Below are positions 35,651 to 42,257 of a stretch of DNA of 64,000 bases, in pieces. The translations under genes were made by a program, and so were the position numbers. A model generated the notes under the pieces. The model saw nothing but the letters and a program-made list of their open reading frames with translations, was not told where the DNA came from and searched no databases. Position 1 is the stretch's first letter. Each line of letters starts with the position of its first letter. This stretch comes from Phycisphaerales bacterium (lineage in GTDB: Bacteria > Planctomycetota > Phycisphaerae > WQYP01): the NCBI GenBank assembly GCA_009781185.1, contig WQYP01000001.1:20102-84101 (forward strand). The letters run 5' to 3'.

Positions 35651-35671
35651 CCACGCCTTCCTTATTTATTA

Positions 35672-35724
35672 TCGCATGTACATAATACAATGAGTTTGCG
35701 GCGCATCAAGTTGAATCCATATTT
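35672..35724 (-). promoter_or_regulatory. Repeated promoter, copy 1
   Basis: Minus strand aaatatggattcaac-TTGATG-N14-TG-TATTAT-gtacatgcga; near-identical flanks at 37426-37478. Confidence 0.7.
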
Positions 35725-36547: not shown

Positions 36548-37405
36548 TTAGGCTTGGGCGTCGTATTTCGCCGCCAAGCGTCGGAATTCGCTTTTGATCT
36601 GGTCTTGCGGGATGATGTCGCTGATCCAGCCGTATTGGGTGCCGTTGTGGATTCGGGCGTATCCCGCGCCCCAAGCGAGGTATCCCATCAGGCGTTCGGC
36701 TTCGCTCGCGCCTTCGCCGGCTTTCTTCCAGCCGCCTTTGAGGGGTTTGGGATTCCATGTTGGCGTCCGCTTGGCGTTGATCGCCCGTTCGACCAATCCG
36801 AGGCAAACCTGAATCCAGCCGATCACCTTGACGGCGCTGGTCGAGCCGGAGAAGACTCTGAACTCCACCGTATCGCGGCGTCCGTTGGCGAGGTTGGTCA
36901 GGTTCAAGGCGTGGTAGCGGCTACGGTCGAGGGTTGGTTTTGCTTTCTTGGCGTCCCCGTATTTGCGGACCCCGCCGCAGTACATCCCGCGTTCGCGGCT
37001 CTTGGTTCCGGTGATCGCGTAGAGGCCTTTTTCTACGTAGGCGACGATGGTCACCAGTCTGGCCAAGGCGTCGGCGGGAAGACTGCGGGGCCATCCTACG
37101 TGAGCGTGAAATCCCGTACTCGCGTTCACTCGGAATCCTTTGGCTTCGAGCGTTCGCAAAACTTCGGCGACCTGTGCCAATCCTTCTGCGCCGCGGAGGA
37201 TCGGGCTTACTATTTCGCAGGCCTGTCCGCCGGGTATGTTGCGGGTATCAATCGAGGCGTCGCGTTCGGCGGTCCAACCCTGCGGCAGGTACGGCACCTG
37301 AATTCCGTGGTGGTAGGCTCCGATTCGCAGTCCGTCGTTCTCGATAGTGCTTCGCGGGGCTATGGTTTCGATCTCGATTCCGAAGGTTAGTTCGCTTGCG
37401 TTCAT
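36548..37405 (-). CDS. Amidoligase (COOH-NH2 ligase, Amidoligase_2-like)
   Basis: TFGIEIE, W....DASI, EIVSP.L, VN.STGFHAH, RY.ALN, TVEFR. Confidence 0.9.
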   Translation of the reverse strand: MNASELTFGIEIETIAPRSTIENDGLRIGAYHHGIQVPYLPQGWTAERDASIDTRNIPGGQACEIVSPILRGAEGLAQVAEVLRTLEAKGFRVNASTGFHAHVGWPRSLPADALARLVTIVAYVEKGLYAITGTKSRERGMYCGGVRKYGDAKKAKPTLDRSRYHALNLTNLANGRRDTVEFRVFSGSTSAVKVIGWIQVCLGLVERAINAKRTPTWNPKPLKGGWKKAGEGASEAERLMGYLAWGAGYARIHNGTQYGWISDIIPQDQIKSEFRRLAAKYDAQA

Positions 37406-37425
37406 CTGTGTTCTCCTTTATATGG

Positions 37426-37478
37426 TCGCATGTACATAATACAATGTGTATAGAACACATCAGGTTAATTCCATATTT
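37426..37478 (-). promoter_or_regulatory. Repeated promoter, copy 2
   Basis: Shares the 21-bp tcgcatgtacataatacaatg and a catca.gtt.a.tccatattt block with 35672-35724. Confidence 0.7.
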
Positions 37479-37579
37479 AATCTGTCTTATTTCGGAGTCT
37501 AGCTATGTGAAGTCAAACGGTTGGCTGAAAAAAGCATAAAAAAGGCTCTTTGACATCTGAATACTCCTCAGGAATGTGG

Positions 37580-38800
37580 TCAGGCCGTCTTTGGTGAAGG
37601 CGGTTTTGATTGGTAGTCCCGCTGATCGGTGCAGATTCGCCATGCGATGCGAGCGAGTTTGAGACTGACGGCGGTGACTGCTGAGAGGTGGTGGATGCCT
37701 CGTTTGCGACGTTTGAGATAATGGCGTTGCAGCGGTCCTTTGGATCGCACCGCGACGAAAGCCATTGTCCACAGGGTGTGCCGCAGATGCGGTGATCCAC
37801 GCTTGGAGATATGTCGGCGTGACGCTTCAAACTGTCCAGTCTGGTAACGTGTCACGTCGAGTCCCGCGAATGCCACGAGTTGCTCGGGTGTTTTGAAGGT
37901 GCTGATGGGATCGGTTTCGCCAAAGAGGCTCACAGCGCGGATCGGATTACTGCCGGGCAATGTCAACAAGTATCCCGGCAGGCGTTCGCAAAGCTCGGTG
38001 ATTTTCCCTTCGAGTTGCTTACGCACCAATGTTGTTGCGTCGAGCTGATCGAGCAAGGTGCGAATGCCAACTTGCATGCCTTCGAGTCCTCGTCGCATGC
38101 CGATGGACACTTGTGCCGAGGTACGGATGGCTGCTGCCTCTGTAGCTCCGAAATGACCGTGCGAAGCTTTTCGCAGCAGTTCGGCAAGCGTTTCATGGTT
38201 CATGGTCAGCAGGTCTTCTGGCGTTGGTGCGGCACGCAACAGTGCTCGACCAGTTGCGCCCAGCGGCTGACTCATGTAGGTCTCGAACTCCGGCCAGACG
38301 CATTCGAGCCTGGAGTGGATGAGTAGTTTGATACGTGTCCGCTGTTGGCCCAAGGTGTACCAGAGTCGCGTGAGCTGTCGGCATGTCATGGCCAGGTCGT
38401 CGGGAATCAGCGCGGGCTTTCCCTCGCCGTTGCGTACCAACGTGGCGATGTGGTTGGCATCGCTGGTGTCGGACTTATGCTTGCGGATGGCGTTCTTGAT
38501 CTGCTGTGCCGATTGCAGGGGATTGAGCACCTGCTGGGTGTAACCCCAGCGTTGAAGTTGGTCATGGAGGGCAAACCAGTAATGCCCGGTGGCCTCCATG
38601 CCCACCAATATCGGCGCACCGTCGACAGCCTCTTGCAGGCGTTGATGCAGGCGTTTTAAGCCTTCGGCGTCGTTGGTGAAGGCCAGCGTTTTGATCAGTG
38701 GCTGTCCCTGTGCATCGAGCAGGCAAGCGACGTGTTTGCTCTTGCCAACGTCGATTCCACAGAAATATGCAAAGCGTTGCGACATGCTTATTTTCGACAT
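37580..38800 (-). CDS. IS110 family transposase/recombinase (DEDD RuvC-like plus Tnp20 domain)
   Basis: GIDVGK, GMEATGHY, KSDTSDA, L.AFAGLD....TG, ISKRGSPHLR. Confidence 0.95.
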   Translation of the reverse strand: MSKISMSQRFAYFCGIDVGKSKHVACLLDAQGQPLIKTLAFTNDAEGLKRLHQRLQEAVDGAPILVGMEATGHYWFALHDQLQRWGYTQQVLNPLQSAQQIKNAIRKHKSDTSDANHIATLVRNGEGKPALIPDDLAMTCRQLTRLWYTLGQQRTRIKLLIHSRLECVWPEFETYMSQPLGATGRALLRAAPTPEDLLTMNHETLAELLRKASHGHFGATEAAAIRTSAQVSIGMRRGLEGMQVGIRTLLDQLDATTLVRKQLEGKITELCERLPGYLLTLPGSNPIRAVSLFGETDPISTFKTPEQLVAFAGLDVTRYQTGQFEASRRHISKRGSPHLRHTLWTMAFVAVRSKGPLQRHYLKRRKRGIHHLSAVTAVSLKLARIAWRICTDQRDYQSKPPSPKTA

Positions 38801-38820
38801 GAATAGATTCCTTTATGCGT

Positions 38821-39011
38821 GCTTCCATCGGCAGCCCCATGTCCTCGCTCAAACTCGCGATCTCATACGTGATCCGCAGCGTTGGCTCCCAGAGGGAGGC
38901 CACCTGCAACTAGCTCATACGCGACGCCTTGAGAAGGCCAGGGCGTGACAGTCTCCAAAACGCGGCTGATACCGCAGATTCACGGGGCGTCACCGATGCC
39001 CTGATGGATGC
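38821..39011 (-). ncRNA. Bridge RNA (target- and donor-binding loops)
   Basis: Two stem/internal-loop/hairpin units with guides GTGAATCT and TTTTGGAGACT (target), AGCTAGT and TATGAGAT (donor), matching the junction sequences. Confidence 0.8.
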
Positions 39012-39021
39012 TCCGAAAACG

Positions 39022-39426
39022 TTAATTGGTCTTGACGGTAAATGCGTTGACAAGCTGCTCGATGCCGACGCACTGGGCGGTGAAGTCCGGTGCGTCGTGA
39101 TTCACGGGCAGCAATTGATAAAAGCCGTTGGGACTCGTGACGCTGTAAGGATCGAAGAGCAGCAGGCCGAGTTCGACGAGCCGATCTCTCGCAACAGTGA
39201 AGGCTTGTGCATCAAGTCCGAGCAGATCGCTGATGCGCTCTTGCCTGTAGAACGACACACCGTTTTTATCCGCCGCCAGCGTGAGGAACAGATAAAGACT
39301 CTGCTCCTGCGTGGTCATCACGGCGAGAAAACCGTTGCGGAGCAAACGATGGTCGATCCAGGCAAACGATCCCTGAATGCGTCTGAGACGCTTGGGATCA
39401 GGAACGTGGTAAGGCGTTTTGGGCAT
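39022..39426 (-). CDS. Winged-HTH protein (replication-initiator N-terminal-like) inside the IS110 element
   Basis: GGAG RBS; SFAWIDHRLL, LYLFL...AD..GVSFY...I..LL.L....F..AR..LVELGLL. Confidence 0.75.
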   Translation of the reverse strand: MPKTPYHVPDPKRLRRIQGSFAWIDHRLLRNGFLAVMTTQEQSLYLFLTLAADKNGVSFYRQERISDLLGLDAQAFTVARDRLVELGLLLFDPYSVTSPNGFYQLLPVNHDAPDFTAQCVGIEQLVNAFTVKTN

Positions 39427-39748
39427 GACGAGTTCTCCATGCGACCGGTTCCGGCGGCTGCTTTTACAAAAAGTTTTCAGCCGCTGATTCTGTCGGTCAA
39501 TGGACCCACCCGTCGCTCCCCTCCACGCGACAACTTGAGAAAAACGAGAAGAAAAAAGAGATTTTTGCAGAAAAAGTAGAGTCATTGCAATTCCTGAGGA
39601 GTATTCGCGCCGCCGCGCCAAGTAGAAGTTGAAGAAAATTCAATTGCTACAAAGCACTGTGCGAGAAGTAGATAAAGAAGAAACCGCAGTCCCGAAGGAC
39701 TGCACTAACCTAAGTCCTAACGGACTGCAATATATGAGATTCATAACG

Positions 39749-39982
39749 GTGAGCAATGTCCCAACAGCCTCCCCTGCCCCCGCATCCGCAAAGGTGGCAA
39801 ATCCCGCTGCGCTCACGGCGGCGCAGTTGGCGAGGGCGCTGGGGATCGCGGAGGAGCGGGTTCATCGGCTCGTGGCGGATGGTGCGCCGGCGGCGGCGAA
39901 CGGGACGATTCATCTGGTGCATTTTGCGGCGTGGCTCAATCGGAGACTGAAGGAGCGGGAAGGAGGGGGCGATGGCGATTGA
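39749..39982 (+). CDS. Small HTH protein preceding the terminase (small-terminase-like)
   Basis: GTG start; NPAALTAAQLARALGI...DGAP...GTIHLVHFAAWL; overlaps the terminase start. Confidence 0.6.
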   Translation: MSNVPTASPAPASAKVANPAALTAAQLARALGIAEERVHRLVADGAPAAANGTIHLVHFAAWLNRRLKEREGGGDGD

Positions 39983-42257
39983 TCCGGCGAAAATTTCGCA
40001 GAGCGAGTTGTTGCAGTTGATTAACGGGACGCCGCAGGGAACGGTGTTGACGCGGTCGCGGCTGCGCAGGCAGATGGATGCGGGGGGGATTAAGTTTGGC
40101 GACGGTACGCATATGCATCTGGTGCGGTACGTTCGCTGGCTCGTGGAGCAGCTTGAGCGACCGCTTCCGGTAAGAACGGACTACGCGGAAGCAAAGAAGA
40201 GGCAGGCGTTGCGGAATCGCAGCGCGACGAAGGCGGCGCAGGATATTTATCCGGTTCCGCAGATTGAGAGTTACACACGCCGAAAGGAATGCGGGGAATC
40301 GTTCCGGGCGTTTTGTGAGACGTATTTTGCGTCGGCGTTCCACAGGAATTGGTCGGACGATCATTTGCGGGTGATCAGCCGAATCGAAAAGGCGGTGAAA
40401 GAAGGCGGGCTGTTTGCTTTCGCTATGCCGCGTGGCAGCGGGAAGACGACGCTTGCGCGTTGCTCGGCGCTGTGGGCGGTGCTGTATGGCTACAGGCCGT
40501 TTGTGTGTTTGATCGGGGCGGCGGATGATCGGGCGAAGGAACTTTTGATTCCGATCAAGAAGCACATGCTGGAAAATCCGCTGCTGCTGGCGGATTTTCC
40601 GGAGGCGGTTCATCCACTGCGGGAGTTGGAGAATAGCTCGAAGCGGCAGCTTCAACAGCACATCGAAGGGCGTTTGACGCATGTTCACTGGGGACAGGAA
40701 AAACTGGTCTTCCCGACTATTGAAGGGGATCACTTGCCGTCGGCGCTGCGGGAGGATGGTTACGATGTGAGCCCGTCTTGCGGCTCAATCATCACCACCA
40801 CCAGCTTGGACGCCAATATGCGCGGGCAGCAGCATACCCGTGCGGATGGTTCGATTATTCGTCCGTCGCTGGTTTTGTTGGACGATCCGCAGACACGGCA
40901 ATCGGCGGCGTCACCGACGCAGACGAAGCGCCGGATGGAACTGCTCAACGGTGATGTGCTGGGCATGGCCGGTCCCGGTGAGCAGATCGCGGCGGTGCTG
41001 ACCTGCACGAAAATCTACGACAACGACCTTGCCGACCAGGTGCTCGACCGCCAGAAGAACGCCGAGTGGGACAGTGAGTGTACGAAGCTGGTGTATGCGT
41101 TCCCGAACGATGAGAAGCTGTGGGCCGAGTATCGTCACATTCGGGAGCGGCAGGGACATGCAGCGGCGACGGCGTTCTATCGGGAGCGTCAAGCGGAGAT
41201 GGATGCCGGGGCACGGGTCGCTTGGGCCGAGCGGTACGATCACAAAACGGAGGCGTCGGCGGTTCAGCATGCGATGAATTTGAAGTTCAAGGTCGGTGCG
41301 GAGGCGTTTGCCAGTGAGTATCAGAACGAGCCGGTGATGGAACAGGTCAACGACGAGTTGCTCACGCCGGAGCAGGTCTGCGCGAAGGTGAATGGCTACG
41401 AACGCGGCGTGGTTCCGGCGGCTTGCACGAAGCTCACCATGTTTATCGACGTACACGACCGGCTGCTATTCTACTGCGTCTGCGGCTGGCAGGAGGATTT
41501 CACGGGCTACGTGGTCGATTATGGAACTTTCCCACAGCAGAATCGGTCGGGGTTTACGTTGGCCAACGCGCAGCAGACGTTGGGGCGGACGTTTCCGGGG
41601 AAAGGTAGCGACGGTGCGATCCACGCCGGACTCGAAAAACTCGTCTCCACCTACCTTGCTCGGAATTGGCAGCGCGGTGAAGGACTGATGAAGATCGACC
41701 GGGTGCTCGTGGACATGGGGTACAAGCCCGGCATCGTCGCGGACGTGAAGCGTAAGGTGGGGGGGGGTGGAGGGGGGGGGGCGATGATGGCTTCAAAGGG
41801 ACTGGGTATTCGTGCCAGCCGCAAACCGCTGTCGTCATATTCGCGGCATCCCGGCGAAATTCACGGGCATTACTGGTACGTGCCCAATGTGCGGAAGACG
41901 GGGGAGTTTCCGCATGTGCTGGTGGATGTGAATTATTGGAAAACCTTTGTTCACGCGGCGATTGGGACGGCGGCGGGGGATCGGGGGTGTTTGAGTCTCT
42001 TCGGTTCCGACGGGCGTGAGCATGAAATTTTCGCCGAGCACGTCGCTCATTCGGAGACGTGGGTGGAGACGATGGGGATGGGGCGGGTGGTTCATGAATG
42101 GATGGCGAGGCCGACGCGACCAGACAATCACTGGTTCGACTGCTTGGTGGGTTGCAGCGTGGCGGCGTCGCTGTGTGGTGTGAAAGTACCCGGCGAAAGT
42201 GCCGCCGCCCGTACACGTAAACGTTATTCGACGGCTGATTTACGGAGGAACAGTTGA
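39972..42257 (+). CDS. Terminase large subunit (GpA-like)
   Basis: AMPRGSGKTT Walker A, LLDDPQ Walker B, FASEYQNEP, MFIDV, DMGY, DNHWFDC. Confidence 0.9.
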   Translation: MAIDPAKISQSELLQLINGTPQGTVLTRSRLRRQMDAGGIKFGDGTHMHLVRYVRWLVEQLERPLPVRTDYAEAKKRQALRNRSATKAAQDIYPVPQIESYTRRKECGESFRAFCETYFASAFHRNWSDDHLRVISRIEKAVKEGGLFAFAMPRGSGKTTLARCSALWAVLYGYRPFVCLIGAADDRAKELLIPIKKHMLENPLLLADFPEAVHPLRELENSSKRQLQQHIEGRLTHVHWGQEKLVFPTIEGDHLPSALREDGYDVSPSCGSIITTTSLDANMRGQQHTRADGSIIRPSLVLLDDPQTRQSAASPTQTKRRMELLNGDVLGMAGPGEQIAAVLTCTKIYDNDLADQVLDRQKNAEWDSECTKLVYAFPNDEKLWAEYRHIRERQGHAAATAFYRERQAEMDAGARVAWAERYDHKTEASAVQHAMNLKFKVGAEAFASEYQNEPVMEQVNDELLTPEQVCAKVNGYERGVVPAACTKLTMFIDVHDRLLFYCVCGWQEDFTGYVVDYGTFPQQNRSGFTLANAQQTLGRTFPGKGSDGAIHAGLEKLVSTYLARNWQRGEGLMKIDRVLVDMGYKPGIVADVKRKVGGGGGGGAMMASKGLGIRASRKPLSSYSRHPGEIHGHYWYVPNVRKTGEFPHVLVDVNYWKTFVHAAIGTAAGDRGCLSLFGSDGREHEIFAEHVAHSETWVETMGMGRVVHEWMARPTRPDNHWFDCLVGCSVAASLCGVKVPGESAAARTRKRYSTADLRRNS

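Follow-up and report, generated by a model that had tools for sequence, protein, structure and literature searches.

Insertion sequences (ISs) of the IS621/IS110 group are described as having a DEDD recombinase, a CT core, no terminal inverted repeats, and a two-loop bridge RNA that lies upstream of the recombinase and carries guides to target and donor (PMC11208160). In IS621, a −35 box in the right end and a −10 box in the left end are joined on circularisation into a promoter at which the bridge RNA begins, the left end being solely RNA (PMC11208160). We analysed 64,000 nt of DNA from a Phycisphaerales bacterium (GCA_009781185.1, contig WQYP01000001.1, positions 20,102 to 84,101 of the forward strand; this whole stretch is referred to as the window), in which an IS110-family element occupies the minus strand of a prophage-like region. 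It shares the group features listed above, and likewise has a −35-like box in its right end and a −10-like box in its left end. It differs in size (2.2 kb versus 1.28 kb in IS621) and in a leader and a gene for a winged helix-turn-helix (wHTH) protein which separate the bridge RNA from the predicted junction promoter. Judged from sequence, the recombinase domains, the ends with their core, and the bridge RNA are those of the IS110 group, whereas the canonical restriction to two components does not hold. We are close to certain that the architecture is three-part and that the wHTH protein is an integral component of it.

Additional genes have precedents among such elements, one of them IS117, the Streptomyces coelicolor minicircle, which we take to be a member of the IS110 family. 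It integrates from a circular form and carries orf1, orf2 and orf3 (PMC2194683); the likeness to the present element, based on description and not on sequence, lies in open reading frames (ORFs) besides the integrating gene. Thousands of cargo-bearing “expanded” IS110 loci have also been reported, which exceed the canonical 1.0–1.6 kb and, as here, hold extra coding sequence inside boundaries defined by the bridge RNA (Hu et al. 2026 preprint, 10.64898/2026.08.14.744561). An earlier note on this DNA had held that characterised IS110 elements code for no more than a recombinase and a bridge RNA, which in view of IS117 and the cargo loci was too broad. In expanded loci the cargo varies, stems largely from plasmids, has adaptive functions (resistance, metal detoxification) and builds up by accretion (10.64898/2026.08.14.744561), unlike the one small gene described here, which keeps a fixed place and co-diverges with the recombinase across lineages. 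The main text of the preprint, its supplements being outside the scope, makes no mention of HTH or helix-turn-helix (10.64898/2026.08.14.744561), and the literature search, with ISfinder and supplements likewise outside its scope, did not turn up any account of IS110 elements with a conserved wHTH gene. A conserved wHTH subfamily in IS110 therefore appears to be undescribed, while extra genes as such are not new to this family.

Boundaries, recombinase and bridge RNA

The features that define the element, all on the minus strand and given in the direction of the element, are the following.

39737–39738: left CT core dinucleotide (a single CT stands between the flanks in the empty site)
37496–39736: whole IS110-family element, 2,241 bp counting one CT core (empty site, second copy, family-wide ends)
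39729–39734: −10-like hexamer TATATT in the left end (TATAGT in most relatives)
39427–39736: conserved leader, 310 nt (48% G+C, against 57% for the window)
39022–39426: wHTH gene, 134 amino acids (GGAG 8–11 nt upstream of the ATG; winged-helix model)
38939–39003: target-binding loop of the bridge RNA, with the left-target guide GTGAATCT (38983–38976) and the right-target guide TTTTGGAG (38960–38953)
38854–38939: donor-binding loop of the bridge RNA, with TATGAGCTAGT (38919–38909) and a second TATGAG (38867–38862)
37580–38800: IS110-family DEDD recombinase gene, 406 amino acids (PF01548 at 5e-33, PF02371 at 8e-20)
37498–37579: right non-coding end, 82 nt
37511–37516: −35-like hexamer TTGACT in the right end (TTGACT in 29 of 29 right ends)
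37496–37497: right CT core dinucleotide (read from the sequence)

Leader, wHTH gene, a 221-nt spacer holding the bridge RNA, recombinase gene and right end thus follow one another in this order. Read on the minus strand, the left junction consists of the flank ...CCGTTATGAAT, CT (39738–39737) and then CATATATTGCAG, and the right junction of ...TTGACTTCACATAGCTAGA, CT (37497–37496) and the flank CCGAAATAAG. Joining the two ends with one CT brings together TTGACT (37516–37511), a 17-nt spacer TCACATAGCTAGACTCA, and TATATT (39734–39729).

A search of the bacterium's own assembly disclosed a paralogous empty site in a prophage segment (contig G000 C4, locus L003), where both flanks are matched at 80–84% identity with nothing in between. 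It reads TTATGAAT-CT-CCAGAATAAG, which comes close to the empty site ttcggAGattcat that the earlier note had predicted. Because the flanks are joined directly there, the whole 2,241 bp, including leader and wHTH gene, represents an insertion at the CT core. One CT is present in the empty site and one at each junction of the occupied site, with no further target duplication. Terminal inverted repeats are absent, the left end and the reverse complement of the right end showing 12 identities in 40 positions.

A second copy of the element, 82% identical to that in the window, was found on contig C187 (locus L002), and its resemblance to the window stops precisely after ...CATAGCTAGG-CT. Since the empty site and this copy agree, the boundaries are more than a chance result. 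On its 5′ side, the C187 copy breaks off 140 bp from the end of the contig, where unrelated sequence takes the place of the leader and the first 17 wHTH codons; this replacing sequence, the last 140 bp of the contig, contains three tandem GGCTACTCCACAA. In total, the genome has two recombinase genes of this kind and two such wHTH genes, which occur together in each case.

Canonical IS110 left ends are short, and this is the sole point in favour of an IS that ends near 39010, with the wHTH gene and the leader belonging to the prophage, the outcome by which the earlier note would have been refuted. None of the 2,241 bp, wHTH gene included, is present in the empty site, the C187 copy and 28 foreign loci keep this gene together with the recombinase, and the wHTH protein has no match among 50,697 phage records. 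These results refute a prophage origin, to which we leave next to no weight. In agreement with the earlier note, the boundaries and the TTGACT-17-TATATT junction motif are borne out by the empty site, the C187 copy and the family-wide ends. Its view of the wHTH gene as a dedicated component and not a phage gene likewise holds, considering the position inside the insertion, the 28 of 56 loci, the co-divergence and the purifying selection presented below.

By its sequence, the recombinase is intact and has conserved residues of catalytic type. It scores 213.7 bits against NF033542 (“IS110 family RNA-guided transposase”; cut-off 140), and D17, E69, D111 and S336, which we presume to be catalytic by analogy with IS621, are invariant across 26 aligned recombinases.

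The bridge RNA had been placed between the wHTH gene and the recombinase, and there its guides could be located and found cognate to the element's own flanks. The left-target guide GTGAATCT repeats TGAAT of the left flank together with the core, while the right-target guide TTTTGGAG pairs with the core and CCGAAA of the right flank, including one G:U pair. Within the donor-binding loop, TATGAG is the reverse complement of the left-end CT+CATA and AGCTAG repeats the right end, followed by the second TATGAG. When 20 spacers are aligned (A3), two segments of the first domain vary within a conserved scaffold, and the segments of the second domain are fixed. RNAalifold predicts two stem-loop domains for these spacers; of the 35 pairs, 15 have compensatory changes.

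Guides and flanks were also compared among loci. Guide 1 matches its own left flank over 5.53 nt on average and the flanks of other loci over 3.49 nt (15 loci), and guide 2 its own right flank over 5.35 nt and those of other loci over 2.94 nt (17 loci); none of 5,000 permutations reached either own-flank mean, a result which overstates independence because related loci share targets. Between the two copies in the genome, most differences fall in the two target-guide segments, in addition to a short insertion upstream of the target-binding loop. The C187 copy has CTCACAG as its second guide, which pairs with CTGTGGG in the flank of that copy. At the right end, the window has AGCTAGA where relatives have AGCTGGT, and its donor guide is changed in step. 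An exact 8-mer, TTTCGGAG (39018–39011), was considered as right-target guide and rejected, because the C187 copy keeps it in spite of its different flank.

The bridge RNA does not stand out by folding energy alone, since the single-sequence fold of the spacer has a z-score of −0.19. Scanning 37000–40200 at E ≤ 1 gave no match in Rfam 15, which may hold no bridge RNA model. In the window, 19 nt separate the wHTH stop codon from the target-binding loop. In AT-rich relatives (L015:1935–1946, L017, L018, L019, L025, L035) the coding region extends into this loop, its stop codon being located in the 5′ strand of the outer stem, and translation and RNA folding may therefore compete.

Recurrence and co-inheritance of the wHTH gene

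A profile of the wHTH protein was scanned against one genome per species, and 56 loci were fetched. They come mostly from metagenome-assembled genomes (MAGs) of Planctomycetota, others being labelled Chloroflexota, Acidobacteriota, Gemmatimonadota, Binatia and more. Their contexts are distributed as follows.

35 of 56 loci: recombinase match downstream on the same strand
1 of 56 loci (L034): divergent IS110 recombinase recognised by Pfam, which brings the loci with an IS110 recombinase downstream to 36 of 56
28 of 56 loci (a subset of those with a recombinase): full wHTH and full recombinase genes, 152–273 nt apart
6 of 56 loci (L020, L021, L026, L039, L044, L049): contig ends 0–214 nt past the match
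4 of 56 loci: IS21-type elements
10 of 56 loci: fragments or unresolved context

The linkage between wHTH and IS110 genes that the earlier note had proposed to check is therefore present at 36 of the 56 loci. In the last category, a wHTH homologue or fragment has no transposase found nearby: homologues at L038, L040, L050 and L054, fragments beside unrelated ORFs at L033 and L037, and pieces of 27–48 residues at L056, L058, L059 and L062.

Ends of the same type recur throughout the family. Right ends carry TTGACT-N13-CT in 27 of 29 cases, and a left-end motif CT-NN-TA-NNN-T (CT-CA-TATAGT or CT-CG-TATAxT) was recognised in 24 of 30 rows, 142–389 nt and mostly 277–314 nt upstream of the wHTH start. 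Where both ends were found (22 rows), the elements measure 2,027–2,405 bp. Several contigs start 2–4 nt before the left CT or stop a few nt past the right CT, resembling assembly breaks induced by repeats.

Multiple copies, which point to mobility of the whole unit, were observed in a Thermoguttaceae MAG (JAXGMN01), which contains four copies of about 2.4 kb each, 98–99.8% identical, with different flanks and the wHTH gene inside. Their junction motif is TTGACT-17-TATACT, and compared with the window their wHTH protein is 44% and their recombinase 34% identical. The same MAG (L041, L042, L043, L060, L056) also holds one partial copy comprising the first ~1 kb at 87–88% identity, and the flanks of the copies suggest a shared target of about GTNCCTGNCNC-CT-TYTTC.

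Pairwise identities of the wHTH protein and the recombinase correlate with r = 0.93 across 27 loci (without L042 and L043, duplicates of L041, and L016, whose recombinase runs off the contig); none of 2,000 Mantel permutations reaches this value, although correlation and permutation tests overstate independence because related loci share ancestry. Ratios of nonsynonymous to synonymous substitution rates (dN/dS) in 10 pairs are 0.04–0.26 for the wHTH gene and 0.04–0.36 for the recombinase gene, indicating purifying selection on both. With the recombinase as query, 200 genomes from the same phylum were sampled, and six had only distant IS110 recombinases (27–29% identity), and the eight loci of these distant recombinases gave no match to the wHTH profile at E ≤ 10.

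Because of this linkage, the conserved ends, the cognate guides, the co-divergence and the purifying selection, we regard the wHTH gene as an integral part of one IS110 sublineage. On the evidence of these comparisons it is an inherited and selected third component, and the whole arrangement, with guides that match its own target and ends, is passed on together and maintained by selection.

The wHTH gene might instead be cargo carried as a passenger, or what is left of a nested element, and transposition would not need it. Cargo-bearing IS110 loci are reported to be common (10.64898/2026.08.14.744561), IS117 has extra ORFs, and the wHTH family moves between IS families. This explanation is at odds with the fixed position, orientation and leader across 28 loci, with the tight element size of 2.0–2.4 kb and with the wide differences in host context. 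A useless gene would also be expected to decay, whereas this one co-diverges with the recombinase and has an equally low dN/dS. We consider a passenger origin improbable.

Leader, wHTH protein and its possible role

Alignment of 18 leaders (A2) shows a mean column identity of 55% with conserved blocks. A hairpin and T-run follow the −10 box, and then come T(C/T)T(A/G/T)CTT repeats with small palindromes in between; further conserved parts are a GATTCCTCAGG block and a T-rich run. In the window, the following parts were distinguished on the minus strand.

39685–39704: terminator-like hairpin located 25 nt downstream of the −10 box, with an 8-bp stem and a UUCG loop, and GTTTCTTCTT after it
39574–39672: three direct TCTACTT repeats (39672–39666, 39626–39620, 39580–39574), exactly 46 bp apart
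39505–39524: GGAGGGGAGCGACGGGTGGG, a block rich in G and conserved better than any other in the leader (consensus GTGGGCGGGACGAnGGGGGCGG)

Repeats are concentrated in the leader. TCTACTT has five matches in the 64-kb window versus 1.65 expected, three of them in the leader, and T[CT]T[AGT]CTT occurs 1–7 times per leader (at least twice in 21 of 23 rows) and 0–1 times in the remaining 1.8–2.0 kb of each element. A repeat spacing of 43–47 nt recurs among relatives. RNAalifold on a MAFFT alignment of 18 leaders gave no convincing global structure (11 pairs, −2.6 kcal/mol); local hairpins with changed stems were seen by eye only.

The hairpin and T-run directly after the −10 box are also present in L007, L009, L010, L014, L022, L024 and L045, with stem sequences that vary by lineage. 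In most relatives the 5′ arm of the hairpin overlaps the −10 box, while in the window the full hairpin is downstream of the expected start. With such an overlap, a junction transcript might start inside the hairpin, and read-through from outside would meet a complete terminator. The G-rich block (A2 columns ~255–276) has four G-runs with the consensus GGGCGGGACGAnGGGGGCGG, is kept even in AT-rich lineages, and lies 30–100 nt ahead of the wHTH start; its quadruplex-like appearance was judged by eye only.

At E ≤ 1e-3, 566 homologues of the wHTH protein were found, almost all of them on contigs of 0.5–5 kb, and all named ones are “hypothetical”; NCBIfam has no family for the protein. The AlphaFold2 model (predicted local distance difference test, pLDDT, 70; predicted template modelling score, pTM, 0.62) has a winged-helix core at residues 26–105 and a C-terminal tail that is variable in sequence. 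Residues 1–23 have pLDDT below 50 and are predicted to be disordered, yet they are among the most conserved, with many invariant residues. The best structural matches in Foldseek are MarR/SlyA regulators, joined by N-terminal domains of plasmid RepA_N initiators; with both the protein shares the winged-helix fold and no sequence-family membership. The predicted complex of recombinase and wHTH protein has a score of 0.00 (mark 0.32), which speaks neither for nor against binding.

Relatives of the wHTH protein in another IS family widen this picture. Some IS21-family elements have a homologue with 30–44% identity as their first gene, directly before istA/istB (wHTH genes at L055:631–945, L057:1317–1640, L061:1156–1542, and L075:3477–3875 on the Caballeronia plasmid NZ_CP049160.1). 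The istA genes of L055, L057 and L061 score 222–244 bits against NF033546 (cut-off 160), the istB genes of L057 and L061 score 209 bits against NF038214 (cut-off 200), and in L075 both genes are annotated. Nine places in six Caballeronia replicons carry a wHTH homologue, the IS21 context being read at L075 alone. IS21-type homologues share the winged-helix core and the N-terminal motif RxRxxPxxFAWIDHRL (row L053, a wrong-frame ORF, was left out of this comparison). While they have the same gene family ahead of the transposase, these elements differ from the present one in using the DDE transposase IstA and the ATPase IstB, and in having neither a bridge RNA nor TCTACTT-type repeats upstream. 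Since the family serves a DEDD recombinase and a DDE transposase with ATPase alike, a partner specific to the recombinase is unlikely, and so is a dedicated subunit of the transposase. The role of the protein would be independent of recombinase type, because homologues with the same N-terminal motif head IS21 elements. As far as such comparisons go, they favour DNA binding of a generic kind, with regulation by way of the repeat-rich leader as the likeliest role.

We propose that excision would yield a circle in which TTGACT and TATATT are joined into a promoter, as suggested by the IS110 literature, and that this promoter would transcribe leader, wHTH gene, bridge RNA and recombinase gene. The wHTH protein would bind leader DNA and set the amounts of bridge RNA and recombinase, for example by feedback on the junction-driven transcript, and the complex of recombinase and bridge RNA would work as in IS621. 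A regulatory function is suggested by the modelled MarR/SlyA-like winged helix, the repeats restricted to the leader and the homologues that head IS21 elements. For the explanation in its entirety (a three-part IS110 sublineage with leader, junction promoter, wHTH regulator and IS621-like recombination) we see the chances as evenly balanced. The part on DNA-binding regulation through the leader we put forward tentatively, its chances being at best even and perhaps slightly lower.

Several points weigh against this proposal, in addition to the shared ancestry and shared targets behind the tests above and the ten loci at which no transposase was found. A simple scan places the terminator-like hairpin between the junction promoter and the genes, and found no sigma-70-like internal promoter on the element strand; the bridge RNA lies ~730 nt downstream of the junction promoter. 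The fold is weakly supported, as no Foldseek match to PDB falls below E = 1e-3 (best E 2.2e-3, TM 0.40–0.47), and RepA_N domains appear beside the MarR-type regulators. HTH_36 (PF13730) scores 18.5 bits for the wHTH protein of the window, under the gathering threshold of 25, and 19.1 and 16.5 bits for relatives. The leader repeats may act as RNA features or as sites for another factor, and their absence from the IS21-type relatives speaks against taking them for established wHTH sites.

The same protein and leader can be read differently, with a DnaD/DnaB-WHD-like or RepA_N-like wHTH that binds iteron-like leader repeats and brings host replication or repair functions to the circle or donor site, for circle maintenance or copy-out. 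The earlier note had likened the protein to N-terminal domains of replication initiators, and this likeness persists in attenuated form: the N-terminal parts of PHROG replication-initiation families phrog_270 and phrog_19658 match weakly (E ~0.01), and Foldseek retrieves RepA_N structures 5kbj, 4pt7 and 4pql at E ~6e-3 to 2e-2. PF25888 (WHD_DnaB) is listed for 12% of one neighbouring Atlas cluster and for some homologues in a precomputed table, while a local Pfam scan found no match to it for the window protein, P0081, P0094 or P0008. The low G+C of the leader, its T-rich run and the 46-bp repeat spacing also fit such a recruiter, as do the homologues in IS21 elements, whose helper IstB weakly matches helicase-loader models. 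All initiator likenesses are, however, below family thresholds, and MarR-type regulators score at least equally. With 134 amino acids and a variable C-terminal tail there is no room for a second conserved domain, IS21-type relatives lack the repeats, and neither circle junctions nor a raised circle copy number was seen in the matched metagenome contigs. We judge recruitment of replication or repair functions unlikely. An extended form of it, in which a portable module of wHTH gene and leader, adopted independently by IS110 and IS21, couples transposition to host replication by binding the repeats on a circle or junction intermediate, has in our estimate a still slimmer chance. If true, the circle would be copied or maintained, or copy-out driven, some bridge-recombinase elements would pass through a short-lived replicon stage, and a protein cofactor would raise donor supply.

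The sequencing runs that match the window are all contigs of termite-gut metagenomes, two of which may be the source sample, and no RNA run is among them. The metagenome contigs concerned come from four of these runs, and among those matched to the window no circle junction or empty-site joint was found. One contig joint that skips 38654–38820 was discounted, as one of its sides is just 24 nt long. Run X3, from a different termite-gut study, gave four contigs of 151–153 nt with 0–1 differences in the recombinase gene, wHTH gene and leader (window 37711–39691). Because they differ so little, a near-identical element must exist in another sample.

A further alternative is an architectural or directionality factor, comparable to Xis and other recombination directionality factors, whose binding close to the ends or within the leader would alter how often excision occurs relative to insertion. 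Excision by the IS621 recombinase and bridge RNA alone is reported to be inefficient, and expression of the bridge RNA from integrated copies to be weak (PMC13626964), which leaves a niche for a helper, and the N-terminal motif, conserved yet predicted to be disordered, resembles a docking peptide. The family with this motif, however, also heads IS21 elements, with their unrelated DDE transposase and ATPase, and the repeats lie 60–160 bp inside the left end, away from the crossover site. We hold a directionality factor to be as doubtful as the recruitment of replication functions, and regulation through the leader thus remains our preferred, if tentative, reading.

Bridge recombinases are under development as two-part genome editors. 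In MAGs that bear the labels of several phyla, selection has kept a third, protein-coding part and a leader in this lineage, which points to a natural layer of control or help. The occurrence of the same wHTH family at the head of IS21 elements suggests a general accessory module for insertion sequences.

Surroundings of the insertion

In the window, the element is inserted in a gap of ~110 bp between a divergent Amidoligase_2 gene (36548–37405, minus strand) and a small HTH-like ORF, which precedes the gene for the terminase large subunit (39972–42257, plus strand). Read on the plus strand, the core AG (window 39725–39760, L003 ~1600–1620) is part of GGAG in the empty paralogous site. Judging by this position, the insertion may disturb the ribosome-binding site of the small HTH-like ORF.

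The 65–97 bp adjoining the right flank are a repeated sequence with 78–80% identity, which was found at 37414–37478 and, 1.7 kb away, at 35659–35724 of the window, as well as at G000 C273:123–208 and G000 C4:66810–66907. It may be that the insertion target belongs to a regulatory region of the phage that is itself repeated.

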